A stretch of DNA of 64,000 nucleotides, taken from an uncultured Anaerolineaceae bacterium. Lineage in GTDB: Bacteria; Chloroflexota; Limnocylindria; Limnocylindrales; CSP1-4. Location: the NCBI GenBank assembly GCA_964425305.1, contig CAYRMQ010000001.1, forward strand, positions 1,786 through 65,785. The letters run 5' to 3'. Position 1 is the first letter of the stretch, and each line of letters begins with the position of its first letter. The translations under genes and the position numbers were made by a program. This document shows, one piece after another, positions 39,499 to 62,840 of this stretch. Under the pieces are notes generated by a model that made no database searches, was not told where the DNA came from, and saw nothing but the letters and a program-made list of their open reading frames with translations.

Positions 39499-40266
39499 TC
39501 ACGCTACGGCCGGCTCCTCGATCTTTCGCTCCGGGCGGAAGTCGGCGGCTGGGCGCGTCGTGTCGAGAAGGAAACGCCAACGATCGCCCCGGTAGAGCGC
39601 CTCTGTATAGCGCAGTGGGTCCAGCGCCGCCGAGTAAGCCACACCCTGGATTAAGATCAGTGGCGAGCCGACAGGCACGCCTAGCACACGCGCCTCATCA
39701 CCGCGCCCTATGACGGCCTCGATCGTGTCGCGCGTTGACTCGATCCGGGCACCGACGCCAGCCATCAGCTCGCTCAGCGAGCCAGTGAGGTCGGCTTCGA
39801 GCAGTAGCGAGTAGCGCGCAGGCAGATACGAGACGTGCAGTGCCGCCGGCTCGCCCTCGACGAGCCTCAGCCGGCGCATGAAGACGACGCCAGCTTCGAC
39901 CGGTAACGAAAGCGCAGCAGCGATGTTTGACGGAGCGCGGACGAGACCGGCCTCTAGCACACGCGTCTCGAAGCCGATGCCCTGTGCGCGCATGGCGGCA
40001 GAGAAACTGAGCGACTGTGACGGCCCATGCGAGATCTTGGGCGGAGCGACGAATGTGCCCTTGCCCGGCTGCCGAAAGATCAGTCCATCGCCCACGAGTC
40101 GGTCTAATGCCTTGCGGGCTGTCATCCGACTGACTCCGAAACGTTCGGAGAGCTCGGCTTCCGAGGGGACCTGTGCGAGGGCGGCTAGGTCGCCGGACCG
40201 GATGCTCCCGCGCAACTCTTCTTCAATCTGGATGTAGAGGGGTATAGGTGACTCCCGGACAACCAT
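39499..40266 (-). CDS. GntR family transcriptional regulator, HutC subfamily (UTRA effector domain)
   Basis: wHTH VPSEAELSERFGVSRMTARKALDRLVGDGLIFRQPGKGTFV plus a UTRA-sized C-terminal domain. It lies 5 nt downstream of the kinase gene. Confidence 0.9.
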   Translation of the reverse strand: MVVRESPIPLYIQIEEELRGSIRSGDLAALAQVPSEAELSERFGVSRMTARKALDRLVGDGLIFRQPGKGTFVAPPKISHGPSQSLSFSAAMRAQGIGFETRVLEAGLVRAPSNIAAALSLPVEAGVVFMRRLRLVEGEPAALHVSYLPARYSLLLEADLTGSLSELMAGVGARIESTRDTIEAVIGRGDEARVLGVPVGSPLILIQGVAYSAALDPLRYTEALYRGDRWRFLLDTTRPAADFRPERKIEEPAVA

Positions 40267-41802: not shown

Positions 41803-41823
41803 ACACTAGACAGGTATAGTGTG
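41803..41823. promoter_or_regulatory. operator site 1, ACACTAGACAGGTATAGTGTG (kinase/E1-alpha divergent region)
   Basis: Shares ACTAGACAGGTATA with sites 3, 5 and 6 and contains the -10-like TATAGT. Lies 20 nt from the kinase ATG. Confidence 0.6.
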
Positions 41824-41875
41824 CCAGAAGGGCGCGGTTGGGAGCCGGTGCCCTGAACAGCATGGAGAGCATCCT

Positions 41876-42898
41876 TTGTCAGACCCGACCACGCTGCCCG
41901 CAGTCGAGGCCGACTTGTCCACCGTCCCGGCGCCGCCGGACCTCGACGGCCCGCTTCTCTTCGACGGTGTCGAGCGGGAATTGGCCGTTGAACTTTACCG
42001 CCGCATGGCGCTGATCCGCGAGTTCGAGCAGCGCGTGAACAAGCTCTTCCTGCAGGGTCGCATCCCTGGAACGATCCATCTTTCGCATGGCCAGGAGGCC
42101 TGTGCCGTTGGAGGCGCCGCTGCGCTCCGCGAGAGTGACTGGGTCACCCTGACGCACCGTGGCCATGGCCAGGCGCTAGCCAAGGGTGTCTCAGCGCGTT
42201 CGCTGATGGCCGAGCTATTCGCGCGGGAGACGGGCTGTTGTCGAGGCATGGGCGGCTCGCTGCACGTTGGCGACTGGTCGATGGGCGCTCTGCCGGCGAT
42301 TGCGATAGTCGGTGCCTCTATTCCGATCTCGGCGGGCATGGCCTATGCGGCCAAGGCCCGCGGGGAAGATCGAGTGGTGCTTTGCTTCACCGGCGACGGG
42401 GCGACGACAGAAGGCGACGCCCACGAGGGGTACAACTTGGCCACGCTATGGAACCTGCCGGTCGTCTTCCTGTGCGAGAACAACCTGTACTCGATCTCGA
42501 CGCCGGTCGAGCGTCAGGCACTGGTGACTTCGGTCGCCGAGCGCGTCAAGGCCTACGGCCTGCGCTCGATGGTCGTAGATGGTAACGACGTGCTGTCGGT
42601 CTACAGGGCCGCATCTGAGGCAATTGGGCTGGCCCGCAAGGGCGCCGGGCCGACGCTCGTCGAGTGCCTGACGTATCGCCAGGGCGGGCACAAGCGCGAC
42701 GATCCGGCGACCTACCGTCCGCGCGACGAGGTGAAGCTCTGGCTCTCGCGCGACCCGCTGGACCGCATGCGCAGGGCATTGGTCGACGCCGGCCTGGCAG
42801 CCGAGGCGGAACAGGCCGAAGCCGCAGCGGGCGCGACCATCGACGACGCGGTCGCCTTCGCCGAGGACAGCCCGCCCGCCAGCGGCCTGCTGCCATGA
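41876..42898 (+). CDS. thiamine-diphosphate-dependent dehydrogenase E1 component alpha subunit (acetoin/pyruvate dehydrogenase type)
   Basis: Reads GTIHLSHGQEA, and TPP motif GDGATTEGDAHEGYNLA..NN. TTG at 41876 has GGAGAG 6 nt upstream. The track's GTG at 41819 lies inside the operator. Confidence 0.85.
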   Translation: MSDPTTLPAVEADLSTVPAPPDLDGPLLFDGVERELAVELYRRMALIREFEQRVNKLFLQGRIPGTIHLSHGQEACAVGGAAALRESDWVTLTHRGHGQALAKGVSARSLMAELFARETGCCRGMGGSLHVGDWSMGALPAIAIVGASIPISAGMAYAAKARGEDRVVLCFTGDGATTEGDAHEGYNLATLWNLPVVFLCENNLYSISTPVERQALVTSVAERVKAYGLRSMVVDGNDVLSVYRAASEAIGLARKGAGPTLVECLTYRQGGHKRDDPATYRPRDEVKLWLSRDPLDRMRRALVDAGLAAEAEQAEAAAGATIDDAVAFAEDSPPASGLLP

Positions 42899-43896
42899 AG
42901 ACCGTCATCGAGGCCCTACGCGAGGGGCTGGCCGGCGAGATGGAGCAGGACCCGGACGTCTTCGTGATGGGCGAGGACATCGGCATCGGTGGTTCATTCC
43001 ACCTGACGCTGGGACTGCTCGAGCGCTTCGGCCCGGAACGGATTCGTGACACACCCGTCTCCGAAGCCGGCTTCGTCGGTCTTGGCGTCGGTGCCGCCGT
43101 TGCTGGCATGCGACCGGTGATCGACTTCCAGTACGGCGACTTCCTGCTCTGCGCCGCCGACCAGCTTATCCAGCAGGCCTGCAAGCTGCGCCTGATGTCG
43201 GGCGGTCAGGTGCATGTGCCGCTGACACTGCACGCGCCGACTGGCGCGTCCGGGCGTGGGGCCCAGCACGCCAACTCGATCGAGAACATCTTCTACGGCG
43301 TGCCCGGCTTGATCGTCGGCCTGCCGTCGACGCCGTATGACGCCAAGGGCATGATAACCACCGGTATACGCACCGACGACCCGGTGCTGATCTGCAGCCA
43401 CAAGCACCTGTACGGCTCCAAGGGACGAAAGATCGAAGCATCGACCGCGGTCGAGGCCGTTCCCGACGAACCGTACGAGATCCCCATTGGCCAGGCCGTG
43501 GTGCGCCAGCCAGGCACGGACGTGACCATTGTCGGCGCACTACTGATGGTCCACCGAGCGCTCCAGGCGGCCGAAGCACTGGCCGGCGAAGGCATCTCGG
43601 CGGAGGTGATCGACATCCGGTGGGTCGCGCCGCTCGACACCCAGACGGTGATCGAATCCGTCCGGCGCACCGGACGGCTGCTCGTCGTCGAGGAGGGTCC
43701 CGGACTGGGTGGATGGGGTGCCTCGGTCGCCGCAGCGGTCGCCGACGAAGCGCTCGACGCGCTTGACGCACCAATCCGGCGGCTCACTGGACCTGACCAC
43801 CCGATGCCGTTTGCGCCGCATCTCGAAGCCGCACTGGTGCCCACCGCCGAACGGATCTGCCAGGTCGCCCGTGAGCTGACCGGCGCCTCGTCATGA
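42895..43896 (+). CDS. E1 component beta subunit
   Basis: Met78 of ORF 42664..43896 in an ATGA overlap with the alpha stop. Reads FVMGEDIG, RIRDTPVSEAGFVG and a transketolase-C-like end. Confidence 0.9.
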   Translation: MKTVIEALREGLAGEMEQDPDVFVMGEDIGIGGSFHLTLGLLERFGPERIRDTPVSEAGFVGLGVGAAVAGMRPVIDFQYGDFLLCAADQLIQQACKLRLMSGGQVHVPLTLHAPTGASGRGAQHANSIENIFYGVPGLIVGLPSTPYDAKGMITTGIRTDDPVLICSHKHLYGSKGRKIEASTAVEAVPDEPYEIPIGQAVVRQPGTDVTIVGALLMVHRALQAAEALAGEGISAEVIDIRWVAPLDTQTVIESVRRTGRLLVVEEGPGLGGWGASVAAAVADEALDALDAPIRRLTGPDHPMPFAPHLEAALVPTAERICQVARELTGASS

Positions 43897-45017
43897 AACT
43901 AGACGTGGTCATCCCCGAAGTCGGCGAGGCAGGCATGGAGGTGACCTTTGCCGGCTGGCTGCGCGCTGAGGGCGACGAGGTCCGCGAGGGCGATCCCCTC
44001 TTTGAGCTGGACACGGCCAAGTCGATCATGGAGGTACAGGCTTTTGCCAGCGGCACACTCACCGGCTTGCGTGTCTCCCAAGGAGATCCGGTTTCTCCTC
44101 AGCAGGTCGTGGCGCAAATCGAGACGCAGCAGACGGCTGAGCCCAGAGGGCAGATCGCGGCCACTGACGCGGCCGAGCCGCCGCCTGCCGCGAGCTATCA
44201 GGCAGCACAGCCAAGCTCCTCCTCCACTGCCGAGCCGGCCGCCACTTCGGTTGATCGCGCGGGTCAAGCCAGCCCTCGTGCTCGCCGACTGGCGGCCGAG
44301 CGCGGCATAGACCTTGGCACGCTCGAGGGCAGCGGGCCGGGCGGCATTATCACCGAGCGTGATGTACTCGGTGTCCGCGACCAGCCTTCCGAATCCGAGC
44401 GCGTACGCCAGGCCGTCGCGCGCCGTACGGTGGAGTCCTGGCAAACGATCCCCCACTTCTCGCTTCGGCTCGAGGCCGACGTCACCGACGCGCTGCAGGG
44501 GCTCCGGCCAATGGCGCTCGTCAGTAGCGTGGCTGTGCGCGCTCTGATTGAGCATCCGGAGTACAACCTGGGCTGGGATGCCGACCGACCGGCTACGCGC
44601 GAGCGGGTCGATTTGGGCATCCTGGTCGACACGCCCAACGGCCTGCTGCTGCCGGCCGTGCGTCGCGCCGAGAAGCTGGAACCTACCCAACTCGAGGCGG
44701 CCATCCGAGCCGCGGCTGAGAGAGCCCGTGCGGGCGCGCTCGACGTGCAGGACGCCGGATCTCACAGCATCACCATCTCGAACCTGGGCATGTTCGCCGT
44801 GGACGAGTTCACTGGCGTCATCCCGACCGGTGACGTCCTGCTGCTCTCGCTCGGGCGCGTGCGAGAGGTGCCGCGCCACCGTGGCGGCGAAGTCGTCAAT
44901 CGTCGCGTGCTCACGATCACGCTCAGCGCCGACCATCGGGCGCTGTCCGGAGCCGACGCTGCGCGCCTGCTGACCACGTTCGAGCGCATCCTCGCCGCGA
45001 TCGCGAGCGCCGACTGA
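43893..45017 (+). CDS. dihydrolipoamide acyltransferase (E2) with a single lipoyl domain
   Basis: ATGA overlap with the E1-beta stop. Lipoyl-Lys context LDTAKSIMEV, peripheral subunit-binding SPRARRLAAERGIDL, and catalytic DHRALSGADAARLL. Confidence 0.9.
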   Translation: MKLDVVIPEVGEAGMEVTFAGWLRAEGDEVREGDPLFELDTAKSIMEVQAFASGTLTGLRVSQGDPVSPQQVVAQIETQQTAEPRGQIAATDAAEPPPAASYQAAQPSSSSTAEPAATSVDRAGQASPRARRLAAERGIDLGTLEGSGPGGIITERDVLGVRDQPSESERVRQAVARRTVESWQTIPHFSLRLEADVTDALQGLRPMALVSSVAVRALIEHPEYNLGWDADRPATRERVDLGILVDTPNGLLLPAVRRAEKLEPTQLEAAIRAAAERARAGALDVQDAGSHSITISNLGMFAVDEFTGVIPTGDVLLLSLGRVREVPRHRGGEVVNRRVLTITLSADHRALSGADAARLLTTFERILAAIASAD

Positions 45018-45442
45018 TGATCGAGCTCGAGCTGCGCACCGAGCGCAAGATCCAGGCACTGGACGTTACCGACCTCGTATCCGCGCGCGCCTGGCCAGAC
45101 GGCTTCGTCTGGGTCTCCTGCCCGCACACGACTGCCGCCCTCGTCCTCGGCGAGTCGGACCAGGAAATGCTCGAGGATTACGAGCGCGTGGCGGCCGAGC
45201 TGTTCGCGCCCTACGAGCCGTTCAAGCACCACAAGAACGACAATCCGAATGCTGCCGCACACCTGGTCTCATCGCTCGCCGGCAGCCAGTTGCTGTTGCC
45301 CGTGTTCGGCGGTGGGCTGGCCCTGGGGGAGTACCAGCGACTGGTGTTCCTCGAGCTCGATGGTCCGCGCCGCCGGCGCCTACAGGTTGCCGGCCTGCCT
45401 GTTGCCCACCAAGCCATAGCCACGCGAGAGGTGGTCCGGTGA
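45017..45442 (+). CDS. YjbQ/UPF0047 family protein (secondary thiamine-phosphate synthase-like)
   Basis: CPHTTAALVLGESD and GEYQRLVFLELDGPRRR, typical of YjbQ. The start overlaps the E2 stop (TGATG). Confidence 0.8.
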   Translation: MIELELRTERKIQALDVTDLVSARAWPDGFVWVSCPHTTAALVLGESDQEMLEDYERVAAELFAPYEPFKHHKNDNPNAAAHLVSSLAGSQLLLPVFGGGLALGEYQRLVFLELDGPRRRRLQVAGLPVAHQAIATREVVR

Positions 45443-45903
45443 AGGTCGCGGTCGGCGCTGACGAGCTCGGCTACCTGCTCAAGGAGGCCGTCAAGGACCA
45501 TCTCGAGGGGTTGGGCCACGAGGTGCTCGACTTCGGCGTGGAGCGCGACGAGGTCGCAGACTATCCGGACGTCGCCGAGGCCGTGGCACGAGCGATCGCC
45601 GCCGGGCGAGCGGAGCGGGCGGTGCTCTGCTGCGGTACGGGCCTGGGCATGGCCATCACAGCCAACAAGGTCCCCGGCATCCGGGCCGGCACCGTGATGG
45701 ATCCGTACTCGGCGGAACGGCTGGTCAGGTCGAACAACGCGCAGATCATCTGCATGGGTGGTCGCACCATCGGGCCCGAGGTGGCCAAGCTGCTGGTCGA
45801 GCACTTCCTGGCCTCTGAATTCCAGGGCGGCAACTCAGCGCGTAAGGTGGCCAAGATCGAGGCACTGGACGCGCGGCACGCAGGCGCGAGCTCGGAGAGC
45901 TGA
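45439..45903 (+). CDS. rpiB: ribose-5-phosphate isomerase B / LacAB family sugar-phosphate isomerase
   Basis: GTG start in a GTGA overlap with the upstream stop. CCGTGLGMAITANKVPGIRA and ERLVRSNNAQIICMGGR. Confidence 0.85.
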   Translation: MKVAVGADELGYLLKEAVKDHLEGLGHEVLDFGVERDEVADYPDVAEAVARAIAAGRAERAVLCCGTGLGMAITANKVPGIRAGTVMDPYSAERLVRSNNAQIICMGGRTIGPEVAKLLVEHFLASEFQGGNSARKVAKIEALDARHAGASSES

Positions 45904-45918
45904 GCGGCCGGCCTAACT

Positions 45919-46620
45919 TCAGCCAGCGCTTCGGATGGCAACGGGGAAGCTGGACGGGCGCCTGCTGACACGCTCTTCCACGCCAAGGTACGCGGTGCGC
46001 TGCGCTTCGCCGATGCTCGTCGTGTGGGCTCGCACAATGGTCCAGTCGGGGCGGCGGACGGCGAGGAGCGCCGCACTCACGACAGCTGCCCCCCGCTCCG
46101 TCGCGTCGACGGCGTCGTCTGCCTCTATCCAGAAGCGCAGCTCGACCAGGCCGTCGCGCGCGAAGCCAGAGGCATCTCCTTCCGGTAGCGCCGCCAGCAG
46201 TTGATTCAGCATCGCCCGCGTGAACTGCCTCTCGGAGCCGGCCCCGGCAGCCGCCCTGAGCATCACGCACCACGCGGCGCCACGAGCCGGATCGCCGACG
46301 CGCCGTTCGAGGCCAACGGCAGTCTCGGTCAATCGCTCTTCTGCGGAGGTGACGTGGATCAGCACGATCTGAACACCGAGGCCAATCTCGCTCACTGCCG
46401 CTTCGTAGCGCTCGGTCGCCTCGCGCGCGACGCTTGCCGCGTCCTCACCCTCCTGCCACCAGCGCGTCTCGAAGCCATGGCCGCGGCCGCTCGCGGGCGG
46501 GTACTGCAGCCAGCTGTCCGGGCCGCCCACGGCAGCCAGCAGCCGCTCCTGTTGCTGCGCGTCGATGGGCGGCTGGGACTCGGCCTGATCGACGGTGATC
46601 AGCACGCTCCACTCCTTCAT
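45919..46620 (-). CDS. unknown protein, 233 aa, internally duplicated (paralogue B)
   Basis: ATGA overlap with paralogue A. The two halves each carry W-x-[VL]..., F-x-[TL]-R-[WF]-W-x-E-x-x-D and V/W-x-I-V-x-x-H-x-T-S. No family recognised. Confidence 0.7.
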   Translation of the reverse strand: MKEWSVLITVDQAESQPPIDAQQQERLLAAVGGPDSWLQYPPASGRGHGFETRWWQEGEDAASVAREATERYEAAVSEIGLGVQIVLIHVTSAEERLTETAVGLERRVGDPARGAAWCVMLRAAAGAGSERQFTRAMLNQLLAALPEGDASGFARDGLVELRFWIEADDAVDATERGAAVVSAALLAVRRPDWTIVRAHTTSIGEAQRTAYLGVEERVSRRPSSFPVAIRSAG

Positions 46621-47318
46621 CGCGTCTCCTCGGTGATCCGCGGCGTGCGCTTGGCCGCCCCAGGGAATGTGTCGCCATGGTTGTGCTGCGGCGTCCGCGC
46701 CTTGAAGCGGACGATCGTCCAGTCTTCGAGGCCAGTCGCAGCGAGCGCTGTGAGGACGCTGTCGCGTGCCGCCCGGTATGCGGCCGCTGGGCTATCGCCG
46801 GCGATCCAGAAGCGGAGTGTGAAACCCGAGCCGTCATCGAGCAGAAACTTCTCGGGATCGCCGCGCAGCGTGGCTGACGAGTCGGGCAGGCCCAGGCCGG
46901 CGTGAACCTGCTGCAGCAGCTCCTGCCCGGCGGGTGGATGTGGATCCCCGACCGGCGCAGAAACCTTGACGTCGACTGCCCAGGTACGAAGAGTACCGAG
47001 GTATGCCTCCCCGCGCTGCCAAGCGGGAAAGCGCCCTTCGACCGAGGCGGCGTGCGAACGAATCACCTCGACTTCGGGCAAGCCCTGGCGCCGGCAAAGC
47101 TCCCGTAGTGTTTCCCCTCCCTTGCTCACTGCCCTGGCCGCGTCCGGCGCTTCGATCCACCACGAGACGGTGAAGTCGGCGGTGCCGGTCGTCAGCTTCC
47201 GGTCCGGGCCGGGAAGGGCCGCCAAGACAGCCTCGAGCCGCTCACGTTCGGGCGCGCTCCCATCTCTAAAACGTGCCTTCAGCAGTAGACCCCATTCACG
47301 CAGCTGTTGTGAGTTCAT
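46617..47318 (-). CDS. unknown protein, 233 aa, internally duplicated (paralogue A)
   Basis: Met31 of ORF 46617..47408 in an ATGA overlap with the cupin stop. Same length and same repeated module as paralogue B (FTVSWWIEAPDA and FTLRFWIAGDS..DWTIVRFKA). Confidence 0.7.
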   Translation of the reverse strand: MNSQQLREWGLLLKARFRDGSAPERERLEAVLAALPGPDRKLTTGTADFTVSWWIEAPDAARAVSKGGETLRELCRRQGLPEVEVIRSHAASVEGRFPAWQRGEAYLGTLRTWAVDVKVSAPVGDPHPPAGQELLQQVHAGLGLPDSSATLRGDPEKFLLDDGSGFTLRFWIAGDSPAAAYRAARDSVLTALAATGLEDWTIVRFKARTPQHNHGDTFPGAAKRTPRITEETR

Positions 47319-47704
47319 CGGGCGCCCCGCGCGGGCAGACCCGGCTGGGCGGGGCGCGGCTCGATCGCGACGTAGACGGTCACGAGGGGATCCCCGGAGG
47401 TGGCCCACAGGCTATGGCGGATCCCGGGCATGGTCACCACCGCATCGCCTGGGCGCAGCAGGATCTCGTCTTCCTCCTCCAGGAGGATGCCCTGCCCACT
47501 GATGACGTAGTGAACCTCGGGTACGTCGTGCGCTTCCCATTCGCTGCGCGGGTCCCAGCCGTGCCGAGGAGGTTTGAAAGCGGCCACGCCAACGCCCACG
47601 CCTTCCGGCCCGTCTCGGCGGACGCAGCGCCATACCGTCACGTGGTGATGCTCCTCGGCCGCGACATCGGCCGTGTTAACCCTGAGTGCCACATTTCCCT
47701 CCAT
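47315..47704 (-). CDS. cupin domain protein
   Basis: 129 aa. Cupin motifs EAHDVPEVHYVISGQG and PGDAVVTMPGIRH. First gene of a three-gene overlapping operon. Confidence 0.8.
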   Translation of the reverse strand: MEGNVALRVNTADVAAEEHHHVTVWRCVRRDGPEGVGVGVAAFKPPRHGWDPRSEWEAHDVPEVHYVISGQGILLEEEDEILLRPGDAVVTMPGIRHSLWATSGDPLVTVYVAIEPRPAQPGLPARGAR

Positions 47705-47731: not shown

Positions 47732-47754
47732 ACTAGTCTATACGTGTATACTAC
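47732..47754. promoter_or_regulatory. operator site 2, ACTAGTCTATACGTGTATACTAC (cupin/Ldh2 divergent region)
   Basis: Contains tandem GTCTATAC and GTGTATAC boxes and the -10-like TATACT. It is 16/18 identical to the reverse complement of site 4. Confidence 0.6.
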
Positions 47755-47825: not shown

Positions 47826-48896
47826 ATGACCGTGGCCGCCGCGCTGACGGACGCTCGCGTCAATCCGGACCGCCTGGAGAGCTTCGTGGCCCAACTGTTC
47901 GTTGGTGCCGGCGCTTCGGAGGCCGACGGCGAGCTGATTGCGAGAATCGCCGTCTCCACTGATCTCCGCGGCGCGTACTCGCACGGGTGCGCTCTGGTGC
48001 CCGGCTATCTCGAGCGCATGCTGAACGGCCAGATCGATCCACGTGGGCGACCGCGCGTCGGCAAGGATGCCGGCGCCGCGCTGGTGGTCGACGGTGGCAA
48101 CAGCCTGGGCCATGTCGGCGTGACGTTCGCCATGGGGCAGGTGATCGAGCGAGCCGAATCGACCGGCATCGCAGCGGCAGCCGTGGGCAACAGCAACCAC
48201 TGTGGCGCGATGGCCTCGTATGCCATGCAGGCGCTGCCTCACGACATGATCGGGATGGCCACCACCAACGGATTACCCACAATGGCCTGGTGGGGAGGGC
48301 TTGACCGGATCCTGTCGATCAACCCGGTGGGCATCGCGATCCCGACCCAGAACGAGCAGGCGATCGTCATCGACACGTCCTTTGGCGCCGCCGCACGGGG
48401 CAAGATCCTTATCCACCAACAGCTGGGACTGCCGCTGCCCGATGGCTGGGCAACCGATGCCGACGGCCAGCCGACGACCGATCCGGCAGCCGCGCTGGGC
48501 GGGTTGATCCAGCCGGCCGGCGAATACAAGGGAACCAGCATGGCGCTGGTGATGGGCATCCTCTCGGCGCTGCTTTCGGGAGCCGCATATGGCACTGAGC
48601 TCGGCAACTTCGTAGACGGTCCTAAGGCAGGCCGAGACGGGCAGTTCGCGCTGGCTATTCACGTCGCCGCTTTCGAGGATCCGGACACCTTCAAGTCGCG
48701 GGTGGATGGGATCGTCCGCGAGATCCATCGCAGCCGCCGCGCGCCGGGCGTGGAGCGCCTCTGGCTCCCCGGCGAGCGGGCGGCCGAAACGGAACGACGC
48801 TACCGCAGGGAGGGCGTGCCCATCACCGAGGCGACTCGCCAAGGGCTGCTGGCAGTGGCGGAGCGAACAGGCGTCGATGCCACCAGCCTCGACTGA
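47826..48896 (+). CDS. Ldh family oxidoreductase (malate/L-lactate dehydrogenase family 2)
   Basis: AAGGAGGGA SD. Reads RGAYSHG, GNSNHCGAMASYA and TSFGAAARGK, typical of Ldh_2. Confidence 0.85.
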   Translation: MTVAAALTDARVNPDRLESFVAQLFVGAGASEADGELIARIAVSTDLRGAYSHGCALVPGYLERMLNGQIDPRGRPRVGKDAGAALVVDGGNSLGHVGVTFAMGQVIERAESTGIAAAAVGNSNHCGAMASYAMQALPHDMIGMATTNGLPTMAWWGGLDRILSINPVGIAIPTQNEQAIVIDTSFGAAARGKILIHQQLGLPLPDGWATDADGQPTTDPAAALGGLIQPAGEYKGTSMALVMGILSALLSGAAYGTELGNFVDGPKAGRDGQFALAIHVAAFEDPDTFKSRVDGIVREIHRSRRAPGVERLWLPGERAAETERRYRREGVPITEATRQGLLAVAERTGVDATSLD

Positions 48897-48927
48897 ACGT
48901 GCCTAACCGGAGACCGCGAGGATAACG

Positions 48928-50346
48928 ATGAGCCATCGGGGCCCGACAATCGATGCCGCTTACCGCGAACGCTTTGCCGGCTCGGCCGTGCTCTACGAGC
49001 AAGCACGCGGCTTGATGCCTTCCGGCGTCAACCACGACATCCGCTGGATCCCGCCGTTTCCGGTTTACATCTCGCATGCCGATCGGGCGCGCAAGTGGGA
49101 CGTCGATGGCAACGAGCTGCTCGACTACTGTGTCGGGCACGGCGCGTTGATACTGGGCCACGGCCACCCCAAGGTCGTGGCCGCCATCGCGGACCAGGTC
49201 GCCCGGGTGACACACGCCTCGGCACCCACCGAGCACGAGGTGCGCTGGGCGCAGCTCGTGACCCGGATCGTGCCCAGCGCCGAACGGGTTCGCTTCGTGC
49301 TCAGCGGCACCGAGGCGACCATGCTCGCCCTGCGGCTGGTACGCGCATACACGGGTCGCAGCGTGGTTGTCCGCGTCGACGGACACTTTCATGGCTGGCA
49401 CGACTACGCCATGGTGCACTGGCTGCCGCCCTTCGAGCTTGCCTCGTCTGCGGGCGTGCCCGATGAGATTGCCGCGACCCTGCGCTCGGTCCCGCTGCAT
49501 GACCTTGACGCGATGGAACGAGCATTGGCGCCGGGCGATGTCGCGGGCGTGATCATTGAGCCGGACGGCCCGGTAGTTGGTACCGTGCCCAGCCCGCCCG
49601 GCTATCTGCAGGGCGTGCGCGAGCTGACCAGCCGCTACGGAGTTCCGCTCATCTTCGACGAGGTAGTTACCGGATTTCGCCTGGCGCCAGGGGGCGGGCA
49701 GGAGTACTTCGACGTCACGCCCGACGTCTCGACTTTCGCCAAAGCGATCGCCGGGGGAACGCCTTCAGGCGCAGTGGTCGGGCGCGCCGACATCATGGAG
49801 CTGATCTCGTACCGCAGTGATCGGCAATGGAATCGGGTGAACCGCGTGGCGCACATGGGCACCTACAGCGCGCATCCCGTCGCCGCCGCCGCCGGAAGCG
49901 CGGCGCTCGAGCTGCTGGCTGACGGCTCCGTACAGAACCTCACGGCCGAGCTCGCAGACCGCCTGCGCGCGGGCCTCAACGGCGTCCTGCGCGAAGCCGG
50001 CGTGGCCGGCTGCGCCTACGGCATCCGGTCATGCTTCCGCTTCGTAGTAGGCGACGACGACGAGCTGCCAGATACGGTGGACGTCGCCGAGTTCCTGGCC
50101 GGCGCATCCGTCTCCCGGCTCCTCGAGGGAACGCGCCAGCCGCTCCGGAGCACGCTCCAGAAGGGATTCCTGCTCGAAGGCCTTGACTTCATGGGCGGCA
50201 ACCACGGCTGGCTTTCCAGCGCCCACGCCGAGGCCGATGTGGACTCCAGCGTGGAAGGCTTTGCCCGGGCCCTGGGTCGGGCAATCAATGAAGGCGTGAT
50301 CTCCGCGCGGCGAGGCACGCTCGCTCGCGCCGCCGCGCGGGCATGA
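48928..50346 (+). CDS. class III pyridoxal-phosphate aminotransferase (glutamate-1-semialdehyde aminomutase-like)
   Basis: Reads GHGALILGHGHP, SGTEATMLALRLVRAYTG, FDEVVTGFR and FAKAIAGG (the PLP Lys). Confidence 0.85.
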   Translation: MSHRGPTIDAAYRERFAGSAVLYEQARGLMPSGVNHDIRWIPPFPVYISHADRARKWDVDGNELLDYCVGHGALILGHGHPKVVAAIADQVARVTHASAPTEHEVRWAQLVTRIVPSAERVRFVLSGTEATMLALRLVRAYTGRSVVVRVDGHFHGWHDYAMVHWLPPFELASSAGVPDEIAATLRSVPLHDLDAMERALAPGDVAGVIIEPDGPVVGTVPSPPGYLQGVRELTSRYGVPLIFDEVVTGFRLAPGGGQEYFDVTPDVSTFAKAIAGGTPSGAVVGRADIMELISYRSDRQWNRVNRVAHMGTYSAHPVAAAAGSAALELLADGSVQNLTAELADRLRAGLNGVLREAGVAGCAYGIRSCFRFVVGDDDELPDTVDVAEFLAGASVSRLLEGTRQPLRSTLQKGFLLEGLDFMGGNHGWLSSAHAEADVDSSVEGFARALGRAINEGVISARRGTLARAAARA

Positions 50347-51353
50347 GCGAAGCGGCGACTATCCGTCAGCGTACTGTTCACTTCGGCCTGGGCCCCATCG
50401 GCCTGGCCACGCTGCGCTCGGTCGCTGCCCGGCCGCAGGTCCTCGTCTCGGGAGGCGTCGACGTCAGGGAGGACCTCCAGGGACGCGACGTCGGCGAGCT
50501 TGCCGGTATCGGCCGATGTGGCGCCCGAGTGGTGCGTTCGCTCTCGGAGGTCGGACCACGGGGATTTGCCGAGGTAGTCGTCCACTGCGCCGGCTCGCAC
50601 GTGGATCGCGTGGCCGGTCAGATCATCGATGCGCTTGCCTGGGGTGCGTCGGTGGTGACCACCTGCGAGGAACTGGCCTATCCCTGGTTCCACCACCCCG
50701 GCGAGGCGCGGCGCATCCACGAAGCGGCGCTGGCCGCCGGACGCACGGTGCTTGCCACGGGCATCAATCCCGGCTTTGCCATGGATGCGCTGGCCATCCA
50801 CTTGACATCCGTCAGCGATTCGGTCGAACGAGTCGAGGTACGACGTGTCGTCGACGCAGGCACGCGCCGGGGCCCTCTCCAGCTTAAAGTGGGCGCGGGT
50901 ATCTCGCCAGAGCAGTTCGAGCAACGCCGCGCAGCCGGCACGATCGGCCACGTCGGCCTCGTCGAGTCCGTCGCGCTGATCGCTGCCGCCCTTGGCTGGC
51001 GGCTGAGCACCATCGAGGAGACACTCGACCCGGTACTCTCCGACGCGCCCGTGATGTCAGATGTGCTTACCGTCGAGCCGGGCCAGGTGGCCGGTATTCG
51101 CCAGGTCGCCGTCGGGCGCGCCGGCTCCACCGAGCTAATCCGCCTGCACCTCGAGATGTATGTCGGTGCGCCGGATCCGCGCGACGAGACGACGATCGAG
51201 GGACGACCCGTCATCAGCAGCACCACGCAGGGCCTACACGGCGACGTTTGCACGGCGGCCATCACTGCGAATGCAGTCGCGGCGCTTCCGCGACTGCGGC
51301 CTGGCTTGATCACCACGATTGACCTTCTTCCCCTGCGTGGCCTGGCCACCTAG
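50343..51353 (+). CDS. dihydrodipicolinate-reductase-like NAD(P) amine dehydrogenase family protein
   Basis: ATGA overlap with the upstream stop. N-terminal GLGPIG Rossmann, GINPGFAMD and GHVGLVES, resembling the 2,4-diaminopentanoate dehydrogenase type as recalled. Confidence 0.7.
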   Translation: MSEAATIRQRTVHFGLGPIGLATLRSVAARPQVLVSGGVDVREDLQGRDVGELAGIGRCGARVVRSLSEVGPRGFAEVVVHCAGSHVDRVAGQIIDALAWGASVVTTCEELAYPWFHHPGEARRIHEAALAAGRTVLATGINPGFAMDALAIHLTSVSDSVERVEVRRVVDAGTRRGPLQLKVGAGISPEQFEQRRAAGTIGHVGLVESVALIAAALGWRLSTIEETLDPVLSDAPVMSDVLTVEPGQVAGIRQVAVGRAGSTELIRLHLEMYVGAPDPRDETTIEGRPVISSTTQGLHGDVCTAAITANAVAALPRLRPGLITTIDLLPLRGLAT

Positions 51354-51420
51354 CTTCGCGGAGCGTCCACCCAGGCCCGATCTTCATCGTGTCGATGGTG
51401 CCAGTATCGACATAAGGAGC

Positions 51421-51449
51421 ATAGACGGGACTAGACAGGTATACTATCG
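51421..51449. promoter_or_regulatory. operator site 3, ATAGACGGGACTAGACAGGTATACTATCG (upstream of ABC module 1)
   Basis: Direct half-sites TAGACGGG and TAGACAGG followed by TATACT. Lies 104 nt upstream of the SBP start. Confidence 0.6.
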
Positions 51450-51552
51450 TATGCTTGGCAGGCCGCCCGCGAGAGGTCCAACGGATGTTCGCCGTAGCCC
51501 CACGGGTATCCCGCGCAGTTGTTCGCCGACAACGGACTTGAGGAGGAAGCAG

Positions 51553-52923
51553 ATGAGTCATCTGCGCTGGGTCGCCGTAACATCGATCGTCGCGCTGATC
51601 AGCGTGAGCTGTACCGGCGCTCCTCCCGCCACGCAGCCGCCCGCGACGCAGCCACCCGCGGCGCCCACCACTGCGCCTGGTGAGACGCCTGCCCCAACCG
51701 CTGAACCGACACCAGACAACCGCCAGGTAGATCTCGTGTTCGCCAGGTGGACGAGCGGTAATGCCGTCGACGAGACCTACGAGCAGTTCATCGCGGCCTA
51801 CATCGCCAGCGACCCGCGGGTCACCAGCATCACCCAGGACCTTCAGCCTTTCAACCGTTACACCGACGTGCTGAACGTCAAGCTAGCCGGTGGACAGCCG
51901 CCCGACATTGCCTGGATTCCGTTCAACCTGGCGCCGGCCTATATCGATGCAGGCGCGCTGCTCGACCTCAAGCCGTACCTCGAGGCCATCCCCGACTACC
52001 AGTTCGAAGACCTCCGGCCGAGCGCGCTCGAGCCATGGTCGAGAGGAGATGCTCTCTACGGCATCCCCTTCACCAACTCGACCAACGTCGTCTACTACAA
52101 CATCGACATGTTCGAGGCGGCGGGGGTCAAGACACCGGCCGAGATGCTCGCCGACGGCGAGTGGACGTGGGAGAACGTCCGCGAGATCTCGCAGGCGATC
52201 ACCGACAGTGGTGCGGCGCGCTTCGGCTTCATGTTCGGCAACAACATCTTCGTCAACGGCTGGCGGATCCTGGAGGATATCTGGGCACCGTATGGCGGTG
52301 GTCCTTGGACCGAGGACGGTAAGACCTGCCGCTTCAACGCGCCCGAGACCGTAGCGGCGACCGAGCTCGTGTGGCACATGATCTACACCGACGGCAGCCA
52401 TCCCGAGCCTGGCGTGGAGGTTTCCTTCTTCCCCGGCGACTCGGTGGCGATGACGCTGATGCGGCCGAGCCAGGTGGTCAACCTCGCCGACGCCTCCTTC
52501 CGCTGGGATGTGGCGCCCCAACCTTCAGGCCCTCTGGGCTACGTGCCGGCTGCCGCGACCAACGGCATCACCGTGCTTGCCGCCGGGGCCAACCCCGACA
52601 TCGCCGCCGAGGTCGTAGCCTTCTTCTCGACGGTCGAGAACTCCAGGATCATGGGCGTCAACTTCCCTTCGGCGAGGATTTCCCTGCAGACAGCGGCAAT
52701 CCTCAAGGAGGTCAACCCGCTGTTCACCGAGGAGCAGCTACAGCAAACCGTCATCGCGGCGATCAGCGCACCCAACGCTTCGTGGGGTTACTCGCATCCC
52801 AACTTCGGCCCGCTCAACTCGAACGCCCAGCGTGTCATTGACGGTCAGCTCTGGCGGCCCGACGCCGACATCCAGGGCGCTCTCGATGCAACGTGTGAGG
52901 AGATCGTCGATCTCCTTGGCTGA
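51553..52923 (+). CDS. ABC transporter solute-binding lipoprotein, module 1
   Basis: GAGGAGGAAG SD. Signal peptide with Cys (ALISVSC) and a Pro/Thr/Ala linker. About 55-60 percent identical by eye to the module 2 SBP. Confidence 0.9.
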   Translation: MSHLRWVAVTSIVALISVSCTGAPPATQPPATQPPAAPTTAPGETPAPTAEPTPDNRQVDLVFARWTSGNAVDETYEQFIAAYIASDPRVTSITQDLQPFNRYTDVLNVKLAGGQPPDIAWIPFNLAPAYIDAGALLDLKPYLEAIPDYQFEDLRPSALEPWSRGDALYGIPFTNSTNVVYYNIDMFEAAGVKTPAEMLADGEWTWENVREISQAITDSGAARFGFMFGNNIFVNGWRILEDIWAPYGGGPWTEDGKTCRFNAPETVAATELVWHMIYTDGSHPEPGVEVSFFPGDSVAMTLMRPSQVVNLADASFRWDVAPQPSGPLGYVPAAATNGITVLAAGANPDIAAEVVAFFSTVENSRIMGVNFPSARISLQTAAILKEVNPLFTEEQLQQTVIAAISAPNASWGYSHPNFGPLNSNAQRVIDGQLWRPDADIQGALDATCEEIVDLLG

Positions 52924-53002
52924 ACAGCGACCGTTCGTCATGTCCACGACCCTACCCGGCGCGCCCAACTAGGCCGGGTAGGGTCCGTGGTCTGAGCCCA
53001 GC

Positions 53003-53938
53003 ATGACGCGGGACGCCCTCGTCGAAGCTCGCCCACGGCGCACTTGGTGGCCGCGCGCAATAACCTACTGGCAGCGCGATTCGCTGGCCGGCTACGTCTT
53101 CATCACACCCCAGCTGCTGGGCTTCCTGGTATTCGTCCTGGGGCCCATCGTGGCCGTGTTCTGGTTCAGCGCACACGACTGGAACATCGTGTCGGGCCGA
53201 ATGCAGTTCAGTGGACTGGCCAACTACGGGGCGATCGGCTCCGACAAACTGATGGGCACGGTTGCCCGTAATTCGATCATCTTCTCGCTTGGCTACGTAC
53301 CGCTCAACGTGGGCATAGGCTTGGCGCTGGCCCTCGCGTTGAACCGTGCTATCCGCGGTATCTCACTGTTCAGGACCTTCTACTTTCTACCGGTCGTGGT
53401 CAGCCTCGTCGCCTGGACCATCGTCTGGCGGTTCATGCTGAACAACGACGGTGCGCTTAACGCGGGCCTGCGTGTGTTAGGGCTCGACGGAGCGAACTGG
53501 CTGCGCCATGAGACCCTGGCGATGGCCGCCGTCATCTTGGTCCAGATCCTGAAGAACGCCGGCCTCAGCATGGTGCTCTTCCTGGCGGCGCTTCAGGGCA
53601 TACCGCGGGACCTCGAGGAGGCCGCCCGGGTCGACGGAGCTGGCGACTGGCGGGTCTTTCGGCACATCACCGTGCCAATGATCACACCGTTCATCTTCCT
53701 AGTGACGATCCTGGCCGTGATCACCTCCATGAAGTCCTTCGCGCTGATCTTCCTGATGACCAGAGGTGGCCCTGGTGAGGCGACCACCGTGCTGGCCTAC
53801 TACATCTACGAGGTCGCCTTCCACTTCTTCGAGATGGGCTACGCGAGTGCGCTGGCGATCATCCTGTTTGTCGCCGTGCTGCTGTTCACCATCATCCAGT
53901 TCGCGATCAGGAAGCGCTGGGTCTTCTATGAGAGCTAG
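53003..53938 (+). CDS. ABC transporter permease 1, module 1
   Basis: EAA loop EEAARVDGAGDWRVFRHITVP and six TM helices. Confidence 0.9.
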   Translation: MTRDALVEARPRRTWWPRAITYWQRDSLAGYVFITPQLLGFLVFVLGPIVAVFWFSAHDWNIVSGRMQFSGLANYGAIGSDKLMGTVARNSIIFSLGYVPLNVGIGLALALALNRAIRGISLFRTFYFLPVVVSLVAWTIVWRFMLNNDGALNAGLRVLGLDGANWLRHETLAMAAVILVQILKNAGLSMVLFLAALQGIPRDLEEAARVDGAGDWRVFRHITVPMITPFIFLVTILAVITSMKSFALIFLMTRGGPGEATTVLAYYIYEVAFHFFEMGYASALAIILFVAVLLFTIIQFAIRKRWVFYES

Positions 53939-54785
53939 GCTGACCTTGCGGCGGGCTGCGCGCACGGCCCTCGCCTACGTGCTGCTGATCGTCCTGGCCG
54001 TGCCTCTTGTGTTCCCCATGTGGTGGATGTTCGTCTCCTCACTCAAGAGCCCAGCAGACGTGTTCGCCTATCCACCAGCCCTGTGGCCTCATAGCATCCG
54101 CCTCGAGAACTATCTCTTGATCTTTACCGAGGCACCGTTCGCCCTCCAATACTTCAACAGTCTGTATATCGGTGCAGCCAACACGATCGGCACGATCGCC
54201 GTGGCAGCAATCGCCGGCTACGCCTTCGCGCGGATCCGGTTCGCCGGCAGCACGGCAATTTTCGTTCTACTGCTCACCGCGTTATTGATGCCGGCCGAGG
54301 TCACCATCATTCCCCTGTTTGTGCTCTTCCGTGAGCTCGACTGGCTGGGTACCCACCTGCCCCTGCTGACTGAGCCGATGTTCGGGTCGTCGGCAGTGGT
54401 CGGCACCTTCCTCATGCGACAGTACTTCCTCGCTCTGCCGGTCGAACTCGAGGACGCTGGTCGACTCGATGGCCTGGGCCGGTTCGGCCTCTTCCGACAT
54501 ATCGCACTGCCGCTCGCCAAGCCAGCCCTGGCGACACTCGCCATCCTGACCTTCCTAAGCAGCTGGAACTCCTTCCTCGAGCCGCTGGTCTTCCTCGGCG
54601 GGCAGCCTGAGTTGTTCACACTCCCGCTGGCGCTTACCCAATACGTCCAGGGCCTTCAGGGTGACCCTGCCTGGCACCTGCAGCTCGCCGCCTCCACGCT
54701 GAGTGCCATACCAATGATCGTCGTGTTCATGCTCGCCCAGCGGCACTTCATCCAGGGCATAGCCCGCATCGGCATCCAGGGCTGA
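53928..54785 (+). CDS. ABC transporter permease 2, module 1
   Basis: Met55 of ORF 53766..54785. EAA loop EDAGRLDGLGRFGLFRHIALP. Confidence 0.9.
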   Translation: MRARLTLRRAARTALAYVLLIVLAVPLVFPMWWMFVSSLKSPADVFAYPPALWPHSIRLENYLLIFTEAPFALQYFNSLYIGAANTIGTIAVAAIAGYAFARIRFAGSTAIFVLLLTALLMPAEVTIIPLFVLFRELDWLGTHLPLLTEPMFGSSAVVGTFLMRQYFLALPVELEDAGRLDGLGRFGLFRHIALPLAKPALATLAILTFLSSWNSFLEPLVFLGGQPELFTLPLALTQYVQGLQGDPAWHLQLAASTLSAIPMIVVFMLAQRHFIQGIARIGIQG

Positions 54786-56107: not shown

Positions 56108-56163
56108 GCCATGACTCCTGGCTATGACTGCTGCGGCCGCTCAGCAGGGGCTCAAGGCCGCGC

Positions 56164-56181
56164 TGTACACGTATATACTAG
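56164..56181. promoter_or_regulatory. operator site 4, TGTACACGTATATACTAG (amidohydrolase/MBL divergent region)
   Basis: The reverse complement CTAGTATATACGTGTACA matches site 2. Contains GTATATAC and TATACT. Confidence 0.6.
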
Positions 56182-56185
56182 CGCC

Positions 56186-57082
56186 GTGACGAAGGCTGTG
56201 CCGGCTGGCTCGAGTAAACCGATGGTTGATGCCCAACCCGCGCAGGCGGGCGACGTGACCGACGTCGCGCCGGGAATCCTGGCCGTCCAGGCGCAAACTG
56301 CCGATGGCAAGCTCGGCGCAGTCATCGGAAGTCGCCGGGCGCTGGCCATCGACGCGGGGCTCAATGTCGGCGAGGGGGCCGCGCTAACCGCGGCCATCAG
56401 CGCGGCTGAAGGCCACCCAGGCCTACTTCTCTATACTCACGGCCATCTCGATCACGTGCTGGGCGGCAGCGCATTCAGGGATGGCGAGGTGTTCGCGCAT
56501 CGAGCGGCCGCGGTACACATCGAGCGGCAGCTGCCGGCGTGGGCACAACGTGCCGGTGAGCCACTCGCGCAGTTTGCGCCTAAGGTCCGCCGGCCCACGA
56601 TTACCTTCACGGCCAGCGTCGAGGTAGACCTGGGCGGGCGCGTTGTGCAGATCATCGATGCGCCGGGCCACGCGCCCGGAGCCACCGTTGCCTACGTGCC
56701 AGCTCAGCGCGTGCTGTTTGGCAGCGACACGCTTGTCACCGGCATTCCGCCCTACTTCCGTGACGGTGACAGCGCCGAGATGGAAGCCACTCTGCGGCAG
56801 CTGGCGGAGCTTGGCGCGGAGGTGCTTGTCCCGGGTCACGGCCCGATCGTGCACGGCGCGGCCCAAGTGCGCGAGGCGGTCCTCTGGAGCGCCGACTACA
56901 TAGCCCGACTACGTGACCATATCCTGCGTCGCCTTGGTCGCGACGACCCCGAGGTAATCGTGGCTGCCGCAGCCTATGCCGACTACATCGGGGAGCGCTT
57001 CGTCCGTGACCAGTTCCGGATGGAGTGGCGTCACGAGCAGGCGGTGCGCAACCTGATCGCTGAGCTCTCCTCTGGCGTTTGA
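56186..57082 (+). CDS. MBL-fold metallo-hydrolase
   Basis: THGHLDH zinc motif, plus GHAPG and GHGP. The GTG at 56186 lies 6 nt after TATACT and may be a leaderless start. The alternative ATG at 56222 has no SD. Confidence 0.75.
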   Translation: MTKAVPAGSSKPMVDAQPAQAGDVTDVAPGILAVQAQTADGKLGAVIGSRRALAIDAGLNVGEGAALTAAISAAEGHPGLLLYTHGHLDHVLGGSAFRDGEVFAHRAAAVHIERQLPAWAQRAGEPLAQFAPKVRRPTITFTASVEVDLGGRVVQIIDAPGHAPGATVAYVPAQRVLFGSDTLVTGIPPYFRDGDSAEMEATLRQLAELGAEVLVPGHGPIVHGAAQVREAVLWSADYIARLRDHILRRLGRDDPEVIVAAAAYADYIGERFVRDQFRMEWRHEQAVRNLIAELSSGV

Positions 57083-57129
57083 AGCGCCAAGCCTGCGTGA
57101 TCGTAGCCTAGGAAGGCGGCGCGTCCGAG

Positions 57130-57155: not shown

Positions 57156-57245
57156 CATTCCCGGCAGACTGCGCCGCTGGAGCTCGCGCGAGCGACCGCC
57201 CGGCCACTAGACGTGAAGGGGCATCCCGTCACGAGGAGGAGTCGC

Positions 57246-58619
57246 ATGAAGGGTTTCACCCGCCTCGTTGCCGTACTCATCGGCGGCATCGTGCTGGCAG
57301 CGGGATGCACGCAGGCCGTACCAACCACCCCAGCTCCGCCCGGGACGCCGCCCAGCACGCCGGAGGCTACTGATCAGGCGCCATCCACTCCAACTCCAGC
57401 GGAAGAAACTCCTGACGCACGCCAGGTCGAGCTGACCTTCATGAACTGGTTTTACGGCGGCGACATGGGTGCTGTCTACGACGAGTTCATCGCCGAGTTC
57501 CTGGCGCAGGAGCCGCGCGTGACGGCCATCAACGTGGAGACGCAGCCGTTCGTGCGCTACCACGATGTGCTGAACGTCAAGCTCGCCGGCGGTAACGCGC
57601 CGGACATCTCCTGGATCCACGCTTCTCTTCAGGACTCCTATATCGAGGCCGGTCGACTCTACGATCTGCGACCGATCCTCGAGTCACTCGACGGGTTCGA
57701 CCTGGACGACTTCACTGCCCAGTCGCTCGAGCCCTGGTCGAGGGGCAATGCGCTGTACGCCCTGCCCTTCACCAACGCGACCAACGTAGTCTTCTACAAC
57801 ATCGACATTTTCGAGCAGGCTGGCATACCGACGCCGGAGGAGCTCGAGGCGCAGGGCAACTGGACCTGGGAGACGCTGAAGGAGACGGCCAGGCAACTGG
57901 TCGGCAGCGGCGCCGCCCGCTTCGGGTTCCACTTTGGGAACAACATCTACACCAATGGCTGGCGCAACCTGGTGGAAATCTGGGGCCCCTATGGTGGCGG
58001 GCCGTGGTCGGATGACGGGCTGACCTGCCGCTTCAACGCGCCGGAGACGGTCGAGGCGACGCAGCTCGTGCACGACATGGTCTATGTGGACAGGAGCCAC
58101 CCGGAGCCAGGGCTCGACGTCGACTTCGCCACCGGCGATGTGGGCATGTCGCTAACTCGACCGAACTTTGCCTTCCGCTGGCAGGACGGCGGCTTCCGCT
58201 GGGGCGTCGTGCGTCAGCCCGACGGTCCACGAGGGTTCGTGCCCTCGCTGGCCCAGAACGGCATCGCCGTCCACGTCGGCTCGCCCAACCCCGACCTGGC
58301 GGCACTCTTCATCGCCCACACCCTGACACGTGAGAGTGCGATTCGCTTCCAGGTCAACACGCCGTCCAACCGCGCCTCGACGTTCACGCCTGAGATACTC
58401 ATCCAGGCCGTGCCCGACTTCACACCCGAGCAAATGGAGCGAACAGTCATCCGTGCGCTCGGCAACGACCAAGTGGTATTCGAATACGCCCATCGCAACT
58501 TCGGACCACTCTTCTCGAACTCGCACCAGATCTTCGACGGACAGATGTGGAGGCCGGACGCTGATGTCCAGCAGGTCCTCGACAGCATCTGCGACGCCGT
58601 CACGCCGCTGCTCGGCTAG
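57246..58619 (+). CDS. ABC transporter solute-binding lipoprotein, module 2
   Basis: AGGAGGAG SD before Met12 of ORF 57213..58619. Lipobox VLAAGC. Paralogue of 51553..52923. Confidence 0.9.
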   Translation: MKGFTRLVAVLIGGIVLAAGCTQAVPTTPAPPGTPPSTPEATDQAPSTPTPAEETPDARQVELTFMNWFYGGDMGAVYDEFIAEFLAQEPRVTAINVETQPFVRYHDVLNVKLAGGNAPDISWIHASLQDSYIEAGRLYDLRPILESLDGFDLDDFTAQSLEPWSRGNALYALPFTNATNVVFYNIDIFEQAGIPTPEELEAQGNWTWETLKETARQLVGSGAARFGFHFGNNIYTNGWRNLVEIWGPYGGGPWSDDGLTCRFNAPETVEATQLVHDMVYVDRSHPEPGLDVDFATGDVGMSLTRPNFAFRWQDGGFRWGVVRQPDGPRGFVPSLAQNGIAVHVGSPNPDLAALFIAHTLTRESAIRFQVNTPSNRASTFTPEILIQAVPDFTPEQMERTVIRALGNDQVVFEYAHRNFGPLFSNSHQIFDGQMWRPDADVQQVLDSICDAVTPLLG

Positions 58620-58664
58620 TGGCGTGACCGTCGGCTGCCTGCGGACGCCGGCGACAGCCCCGAA

Positions 58665-59606: not shown

Positions 59607-59607
59607 T

Positions 59608-62820: not shown

Positions 62821-62840
62821 ACTAGACAGGTCTATACTAC
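62821..62840. promoter_or_regulatory. operator site 6, ACTAGACAGGTCTATACTAC (P450/MFS divergent region)
   Basis: Contains the palindrome TAGAC-AG-GTCTA, a GTCTATAC box and TATACT. Confidence 0.6.

Follow-up and report, generated by a model that had tools for sequence, protein, structure and literature searches.

A strictly paired, narrowly distributed family of tandem ferredoxin-like proteins in a catabolic gene cluster of an uncultured Chloroflexota bacterium

Many catabolic enzymes that need no cofactor are built on the ferredoxin-like fold, among them rhamnose mutarotase (RhaM), muconolactone isomerase and bacterial chalcone isomerase; in such alpha+beta-barrel enzymes, which also include the ABM monooxygenases, modules of about 100 aa pair sheet-to-sheet. 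Related shapes serve regulation and ligand binding: the small subunits of acetohydroxyacid synthase (AHAS) are ACT-like regulators of a thiamine diphosphate (TPP) enzyme, and YkoF is an internally duplicated ferredoxin-like binder of thiamine or hydroxymethylpyrimidine encoded in a transporter operon. The present analysis concerns a stretch of 64,000 nucleotides (the window) from an uncultured Anaerolineaceae bacterium (Chloroflexota, Limnocylindrales in GTDB; contig CAYRMQ010000001.1), in which three overlapping minus-strand genes encode a cupin and two 233-aa paralogues, here called A and B. A and B represent a genuine, conserved and previously unnamed sequence family, with a known fold, an unusual, strictly paired tandem architecture and a very narrow distribution.

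Each module of A and B shares the beta-alpha-beta-beta-alpha-beta fold with the ACT and RAM domains of GcvR, aspartokinase beta, the SerB2 N-terminus, the AHAS small subunit and Lrp/AsnC, together with their tandem, free-standing occurrence and their fusion to helix-turn-helix (HTH) or signalling output domains. The ACT/RAM module, however, spans 70-80 aa against about 110 aa in A and B, where the beta2-beta3 loop is long and conserved, the C-terminus carries a conserved extension (GLERR or GVERR) and two diverged paralogues form an obligate pair; the Pfam models ACT and AsnC_trans_reg (RAM) match 0 of 49 family members even at E<=1. YkoF and MTH1187-like proteins likewise place two ferredoxin-like modules in a chain of about 200 aa and four in each assembly, and they are cytoplasmic and encoded beside ABC-type importer genes. 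In contrast to YkoF, A and B would form a heteromer of two paralogues and are linked to catabolic enzymes; the Pfam thiamine-binding family gives no match, and YkoF-like proteins are absent from the top 50 Foldseek matches. The cofactor-free alpha+beta-barrel enzymes resemble A and B in their modules of about 100 aa and in their catabolic operons, often beside transporters, but the rhaM, ABM, Dabb, MIase and EthD models of Pfam match 0 of 49 members, NCBIfam gives nothing, no specific structural match was obtained, and catalytic residues do not align. Chlorite dismutases (Cld), coproheme decarboxylases and DyP proteins also carry two ferredoxin-like domains in one chain; their domain arrangement differs from that of A and B, there is no sequence similarity, and the best TM-scores are 0.36-0.38 at a root-mean-square deviation (rmsd) of 8-9 A.

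The cupin gene (47315-47704, 129 aa) stands first in the operon and is followed by gene A (46617-47318) and gene B (45919-46620), all on the minus strand. The stop codon of one gene overlaps the start codon of the next in an ATGA at both junctions, 47318-47315 for cupin/A and 46620-46617 for A/B, which is the arrangement of a translationally coupled operon. These positions, the strand and the two overlaps agree with what an earlier reading of the sequence alone (the sequence-only reading) had described, and all twelve peptides that it quoted are present. A GAGGAG Shine-Dalgarno sequence, a good match, lies 7 nt upstream of the B start. The longest open reading frame (ORF) for A begins at a GTG at 47408 and would encode 263 aa; the ATG at 47318, giving 233 aa, is the likely start because homologues begin a few residues before the REWGVLLK strand. 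The G+C content at third codon positions (GC3) is 0.74-0.82, similar to that of the adjoining genes. Scans for consensus sigma-70 promoters and for terminators gave no match. At its 3' end the operon converges with an operon for E1, E2, YjbQ and RpiB, and 15 bp (45904-45918) separate the two stop codons; a palindrome, GGCCGGCC, is present in this interval, and a terminator-like hairpin was not detected there.

Paralogy and internal duplication exceed chance by far. A and B are 28% identical over their full length (BLASTP, E 4e-11), pairwise comparisons of the four half-proteins give E 7e-5 to 2e-10, and family profiles of module 1 and module 2 align over 105 columns with an hhalign probability of 99.6% and E 1e-23. 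The sequence-only reading of two paralogues with four copies of one module therefore stands. Its topology, beta-alpha-beta-alpha-beta, does not: a short beta2 strand precedes the F-x-x-R-W-W strand, which makes the unit ferredoxin-like. AlphaFold2 models were built on a 49-sequence alignment and their secondary structure was assigned by DSSP. The predicted local distance difference test (pLDDT) score is 93.7 for B, with a predicted TM-score (pTM) of 0.84, and 90.4 for A, and in both models the order E-H-E-E-H-E occurs twice, as in a ferredoxin-like alpha+beta sandwich. Each module is thus predicted to be a beta-alpha-beta-beta-alpha-beta domain, one of the commonest folds known.

According to the models, module A1 (46986-47318; A residues 1-111) has strands at residues 7-17, 41-44, 49-57 and 83-92 and helices at 25-34 and 60-77, and module A2 (46620-46985; residues 112-233) has strands at 112-120, 148-151, 165-173 and 201-208 and helices at 132-142 and 177-194. 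In the alignment an acidic insertion, GDPEKFLLDDGSG, separates beta2 from beta3 in A2. Module B1 (46285-46620; B residues 1-112) has predicted strands at 2-12, 37-39, 50-58 and 83-92 and helices at 21-31 and 61-78, and module B2 (45922-46284; residues 113-233) has strands at 116-125, 150-155, 158-166 and 193-202 and helices at 135-144 and 170-187; all four modules are read from the minus strand. Behind each ferredoxin-like half comes a short conserved extension, which reads GLERR or GVERR in B. A pseudo-tetrameric assembly of the modules, as the sequence-only reading had suggested, is plausible.

Although the fold is common, no library names the family. Scans of NCBIfam, PADLOC and PHROGs gave no match to A or B, and Pfam gave none to A; the sole Pfam match of B is DUF6456, below threshold at E 0.0075. 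A Pfam scan of 49 family members at E<=1 gave no significant or consistent match, and the scattered matches to DUF6456 (E 0.0075, 2 of 49) and Flg_hook (E at least 0.03, 8 of 49) were judged compositional. Against PDB sequences, phmmer and hmmsearch profiles for A and B reached a best E of 0.064, judged spurious. Both models were compared with PDB by Foldseek, with TM-scores normalised to the query, and the search returned only generic two-domain ferredoxin-like proteins at TM 0.38 or less: the Cld-like protein 3dtz, coproheme decarboxylases, tandem ACT proteins, pseudouridine synthases and designed ferredoxin folds. Weak matches included the polyketide ABM/SchA-like protein 9lmn and the polyketide decarboxylase 9ltx, and a search of model B against BFVD gave generic ferredoxin-like matches only. 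The claim that the module matches no recognisable family thus holds for sequence and fails for fold, since the fold is well known and profile and structure searches name no specific family within it.

The family is also rare. A set of 5.8 billion clustered proteins contains 31 B-type and 19 A-type homologues, 45-75% identical and all unnamed or labelled hypothetical, and an exhaustive profile hidden Markov model search of 1.84 billion representatives gave only 28 clusters at E<1e-10. The 185,579 species representatives of GTDB yielded only four loci, each in a metagenome-assembled genome (MAG) of uncultured Chloroflexia; a scan of JGI metagenomes added four further loci. A search of the literature for reports of a heterodimer of tandem ferredoxin-like proteins in catabolic clusters found nothing relevant. 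The A/B family deserves an entry of the domain-of-unknown-function (DUF) type, and nothing so far shows a new kind of system; the earlier description as an undescribed protein system was too strong for what is an undescribed family in an otherwise ordinary catabolic cluster.

In other genomes, whose loci are numbered here with the prefix L, an A-type gene is followed by a B-type gene in every locus with upstream DNA present, with overlap or close spacing, and this order is kept in the most divergent pairs (L007, L015 and L016); L010 and L013 are short contigs with a B match alone and stand outside this count. The invariable core is therefore the A-B pair, and the cupin is a frequent and ancient companion, not an obligatory neighbour. 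Genes for a sugar-type ABC importer (a solute-binding protein and two permeases) directly precede A in L002, L005, L008 and L011. L012 has E1 alpha and beta genes directly before A and a metallo-beta-lactamase (MBL)-fold gene after B; the order A-B-MBL is found in four loci (L002, L005, L008 and L012), with the MBL gene and not the cupin gene directly downstream of B. A GntR/UTRA regulator gene is divergently adjacent to A-B in L001, L003 and L004, with genes for an FGGY kinase, YjbQ and RpiB nearby, and in L003 and L004 A-B is the only operon that faces it. GFO/IDH/MocA and P450 genes also recur near A-B. Counterparts of all these recurrent neighbours lie within about 25 kb in the window.

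Conservation differs between the two partners. Positions conserved in at least 90% of sequences number 68 in B and 48 in A, so that B is the more conserved partner and A the less conserved and partly degenerate one. The conserved residues of B include E51, R53, W55 and H89 in module 1 and E160, R162, W164, R197 and H199 in module 2; both modules carry E-x-R-x-W on beta3 and x-H on beta4, and strand alternation places the invariant charged residues on one face of the sheet. A retains part of this E/R/H/W pattern in module 2 only and has lost it in module 1, and its own signatures are TGGGxDFT, RSHAASVEGR, GDxEKFLLDDGSGF, DTFPG and a C-terminal TEETR. The segment of B from beta2 through the loop to beta3, W37-x-Q-Y-P-P-A-S-G-R-G-H-G-F-E-T-R-W-W55 (46456-46512, minus strand), has 18 of 19 positions conserved in at least 90% of the 31 B-type sequences. 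Its loop, W-x-QYPPASGRGHGFETRWW, hardly varies, and model confidence is lowest there (pLDDT 70 for block 41-50), which is consistent with a mobile, candidate functional loop. The RGHGF segment resembles RNP1, and an RRM-like reading of it was dropped; RRM is absent from the Foldseek matches and from the Pfam scan.

The A-B operon belongs to a regulon marked by a palindromic, operator-like site. The site CTATACGTGTATAC (47738-47751) lies in the 121 bp that separate the cupin-A-B operon from a divergent operon beginning with an Ldh_2-family gene. Its general form, CTA[G/T]AC-NN-GT[A/C]TAG, has 11 matches in the window where 0.4 are expected, and these mark nearly every promoter region of a cluster of about 25 kb: at 41806 between the FGGY and E1 alpha genes (divergent), at 51431 upstream of the first solute-binding protein, at 56165 in the amidohydrolase/MBL divergent region, at 57129 and 57139 upstream of the second solute-binding protein, and at 62822 near the P450 start. 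The same palindrome stands between the GntR/UTRA gene and A in L001/L006 (at 9244 of L001), L003 (9951) and L004 (2407); further sites in L007, at 7874 and 8011, lie 1.3-1.5 kb upstream of the A-B pair. The operon thus shares an operator that is kept in other genomes, as the sequence-only reading had proposed in assigning it to a catabolic regulon through an operator site. The GntR/UTRA (HutC-type) protein encoded at 39499-40266 (minus strand; Pfam GntR and UTRA), whose orthologues adjacent to A-B in L001, L003 and L004 are 69% identical, is probably the repressor that binds these palindromes.

The function preferred here for the pair, tentatively and at less than even odds, is a cofactor-free catalytic role alongside the cupin and the MBL-fold hydrolase. 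It is favoured because the pair lies in enzyme operons under the pathway operator, B has dense invariant polar residues and A is degenerate. A and B, co-translated in equal amounts, would most likely form an obligate hetero-oligomer with four ferredoxin-like modules per pair, and this complex would be a cytoplasmic part of a pathway under GntR/UTRA control that handles an imported sugar-like compound, possibly of cyclitol or glycoside origin. Its substrate may be a small pathway intermediate, probably an anion, converted with no organic cofactor by acid-base chemistry such as isomerisation, tautomerisation or ring opening or closing, as in other alpha+beta-barrel enzymes, and the complex may operate alongside the putatively metal-dependent cupin and the MBL-fold hydrolase, either in sequence or as one assembly. 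B would carry the functional sites in both modules (the E-x-R-x-W strand, the x-H strand and the invariant SGRGHG loop), with A as a structural or specificity partner that is partly degenerate. The data show that the genes are real, and they establish the paralogy, the duplication, the fold, the rarity, the A-then-B order, the conserved neighbours and the shared operator; an obligate A-B heteromer handling a small molecule fits these facts. That the two proteins associate, bind a ligand and catalyse a reaction, and what kind of substrate is involved, we infer.

The remote relatives of the family point in another direction. A second tier of about 45 representative proteins, at E 1e-7 to 1e-3 over the whole library, matches module 2 only, through their N-terminal 100 residues; these N-terminal domains align to module 2 with an hhalign probability of 99.6% and E 1e-23, and to module 1 at E 1e-19. 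Of 40 such single-module relatives, 27 are proteins of about 170 aa with a C-terminal excisionase-type HTH (weak HTH_17, PHROG 597/66, PADLOC PDC-M06B), and 3 carry GGDEF, two of them also GAF or PAS. The module therefore also serves as an input-side domain of DNA-binding and signalling proteins. The relatives make up a family of their own, likewise unannotated, and one comes from an Acidimicrobiales MAG. A stand-alone single-module copy at L009 has small hypothetical genes, a transposase fragment and a DNA methylase as neighbours, which is uninformative.

Three results weigh against catalysis: Foldseek gives no specific enzyme relative of A or B (TM <=0.38), tandem ACT regulatory proteins (2nyi, 1u8s, SerB2 and aspartokinase beta) account for several of its higher-probability matches, and remote sequence similarity is confined to N-terminal domains of HTH or GGDEF proteins, a position typical of sensor or oligomerisation domains and not of enzymes. 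The last two lend weight to the main alternative, unlikely on balance but a serious one, that A-B is a non-catalytic ligand binder of the ACT/RAM/YkoF type. As a free-standing tandem sensor of the imported compound or of an intermediate, the pair would then regulate a partner enzyme (the cupin, the MBL-fold protein or the TPP-dependent E1) or retain the ligand once it has been imported, and its location directly after ABC permease genes in several loci agrees with this. However, the PII and Thiamine_BP models of Pfam, like ACT and RAM, match none of the 49 members at E<=1, and simple sensors do not usually show so dense a set of invariant charged residues or so strict a pairing of two diverged paralogues. 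Moreover, the N-terminal domain of the HTH and GGDEF proteins could serve oligomerisation alone and would then say nothing about ligand binding.

A third possibility moves the catalytic centre into the cupin. Here A and B would be accessory subunits of a three-component enzyme with the putative metal site of the cupin as its catalytic centre; they would shape or gate the substrate pocket and would not act on their own. The cupin matches Pfam Cupin_2 (PF07883) with 40.8 bits, above the gathering cut-off of 27.2, and AraC_binding at E 2e-9; no relative was found among PDB sequences at E<=0.01. Its candidate metal motif reads E57-A-H59-D-V-P-E63 ... H96, where the canonical H-x-H-x3-4-E ... H has His in place of the first Glu, and this plausible E/H/E/H set is kept in the orthologue of L015, as are the segments E-A-H-D-V-P-E-V-H-Y-V-x-S-G and G-I-R-H. 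The cupin is joined to A-B by the ATGA overlaps in the window, and orthologues with 53-57% identity lie in the same operon as A-B or near it in the L002/L005/L008 group, in L007 and in the deeply divergent L015. The link is thus real and old, and the earlier view of cupin, A and B as one unit holds to that extent, but only the A-B pair is the core: the flanking DNA examined in L001/L006, L003 and L004 contains no orthologue of the window cupin (L011 and L012 are too short downstream to judge), and where present the gene may be upstream, two genes downstream, 6 kb away or divergent. A known cupin enzyme with such partners was not found, although this is an argument from absence. Taken together, an accessory role appears improbable.

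A haem-binding role of the Cld, coproheme decarboxylase or DyP type, perhaps linked to the P450, is very improbable: the best Foldseek E-values (1e-4) are to Cld-like 3dtz and coproheme decarboxylases and a P450 gene recurs nearby, but at TM 0.25-0.38 and rmsd 8-10 A the likeness exists only at the level of two ferredoxin-like domains, and the Pfam models Chlor_dismutase and DyP match no member. A role as Fe-S ferredoxin or P450 redox partner was dropped because the alignments of A and B contain no conserved cysteines, which excludes an Fe-S ferredoxin. The idea that A and B are chance or shadow ORFs, prompted by the long ORFs that high GC yields in many frames and by a 234-aa ORF opposite at 46201-46905, is already refuted, with next to no probability left, by about 50 homologues of 45-75% identity with conserved motifs, by conserved synteny, by pLDDT above 90 for both proteins and by a GC3 like that of neighbouring genes.

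Beyond the cofactor-free catalytic reading, a bolder extension is doubtful, though not negligible. Cupin, A and B, possibly with the MBL-fold hydrolase, could constitute an undescribed multi-subunit enzyme for a new step in an uncharacterised pathway, by which uncultured soil Chloroflexia would use an imported sugar-, aminocyclitol- or glycoside-like compound; the module of about 100 aa could then define a new superfamily of ligand-handling domains that also acts as the sensor domain of HTH regulators and diguanylate cyclases.

The surrounding genes of the window suggest what kind of pathway may be involved. On the plus strand, 41819-45903 encodes the E1 alpha, E1 beta and E2 components, but no E3, of a 2-oxoacid/acetoin-type dehydrogenase; genes for YjbQ (UPF0047) and an RpiB/LacAB isomerase come next, with stop codons overlapping start codons, and L001 also has the YjbQ-RpiB pair. 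Divergent from cupin-A-B, an operon at 47826-51353 (plus strand) encodes the Ldh_2-family dehydrogenase, a class-III aminotransferase and a protein like 2,4-diaminopentanoate dehydrogenase (DAP_DH). Aminotransferase and DAP_DH-like genes are also present near A-B in L007, a hint of an amino group on the substrate. Sugar-type ABC importers are encoded twice, by paralogous gene sets at 51319-54785 and 57213-60474 that each comprise a solute-binding protein and two permeases; they are 50-60% identical to the same genes in related loci, and neither operon has an ATPase gene. The MBL-fold gene (56111-57082, plus strand) has an HGHLDH motif and is the counterpart of the gene directly after B elsewhere, with 47% identity to the MBL protein of L002 (tblastn, E 3e-73); a 147-aa ORF without family match on the opposite strand (56423-56866) is a shadow of this real gene. 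The cluster also encodes GFO/IDH/MocA, P450 and amidohydrolase proteins beside the TPP-dependent E1/E2, the FGGY kinase and RpiB. This gene content suggests an imported carbohydrate-, cyclitol- or glycoside-like substrate with an amino group; rhizopine-, inositol-, ureide- and flavonoid-glycoside-like compounds are guesses from the same content.

The A-B pair is among the few parts of this catabolic cluster of about 25 kb that current libraries cannot name, and it is strictly kept as a two-gene unit in every lineage that has it. Because the fold is common and the family tiny, the wider impact would be modest unless the chemistry proves new. Once solved, the function of A-B would probably reveal a missing step or control point in the use of a carbohydrate-like substrate by soil Chloroflexia, which are abundant and uncultured, and would provide both a name and a function for a small domain superfamily whose single-module members front DNA-binding and c-di-GMP-synthesising domains.

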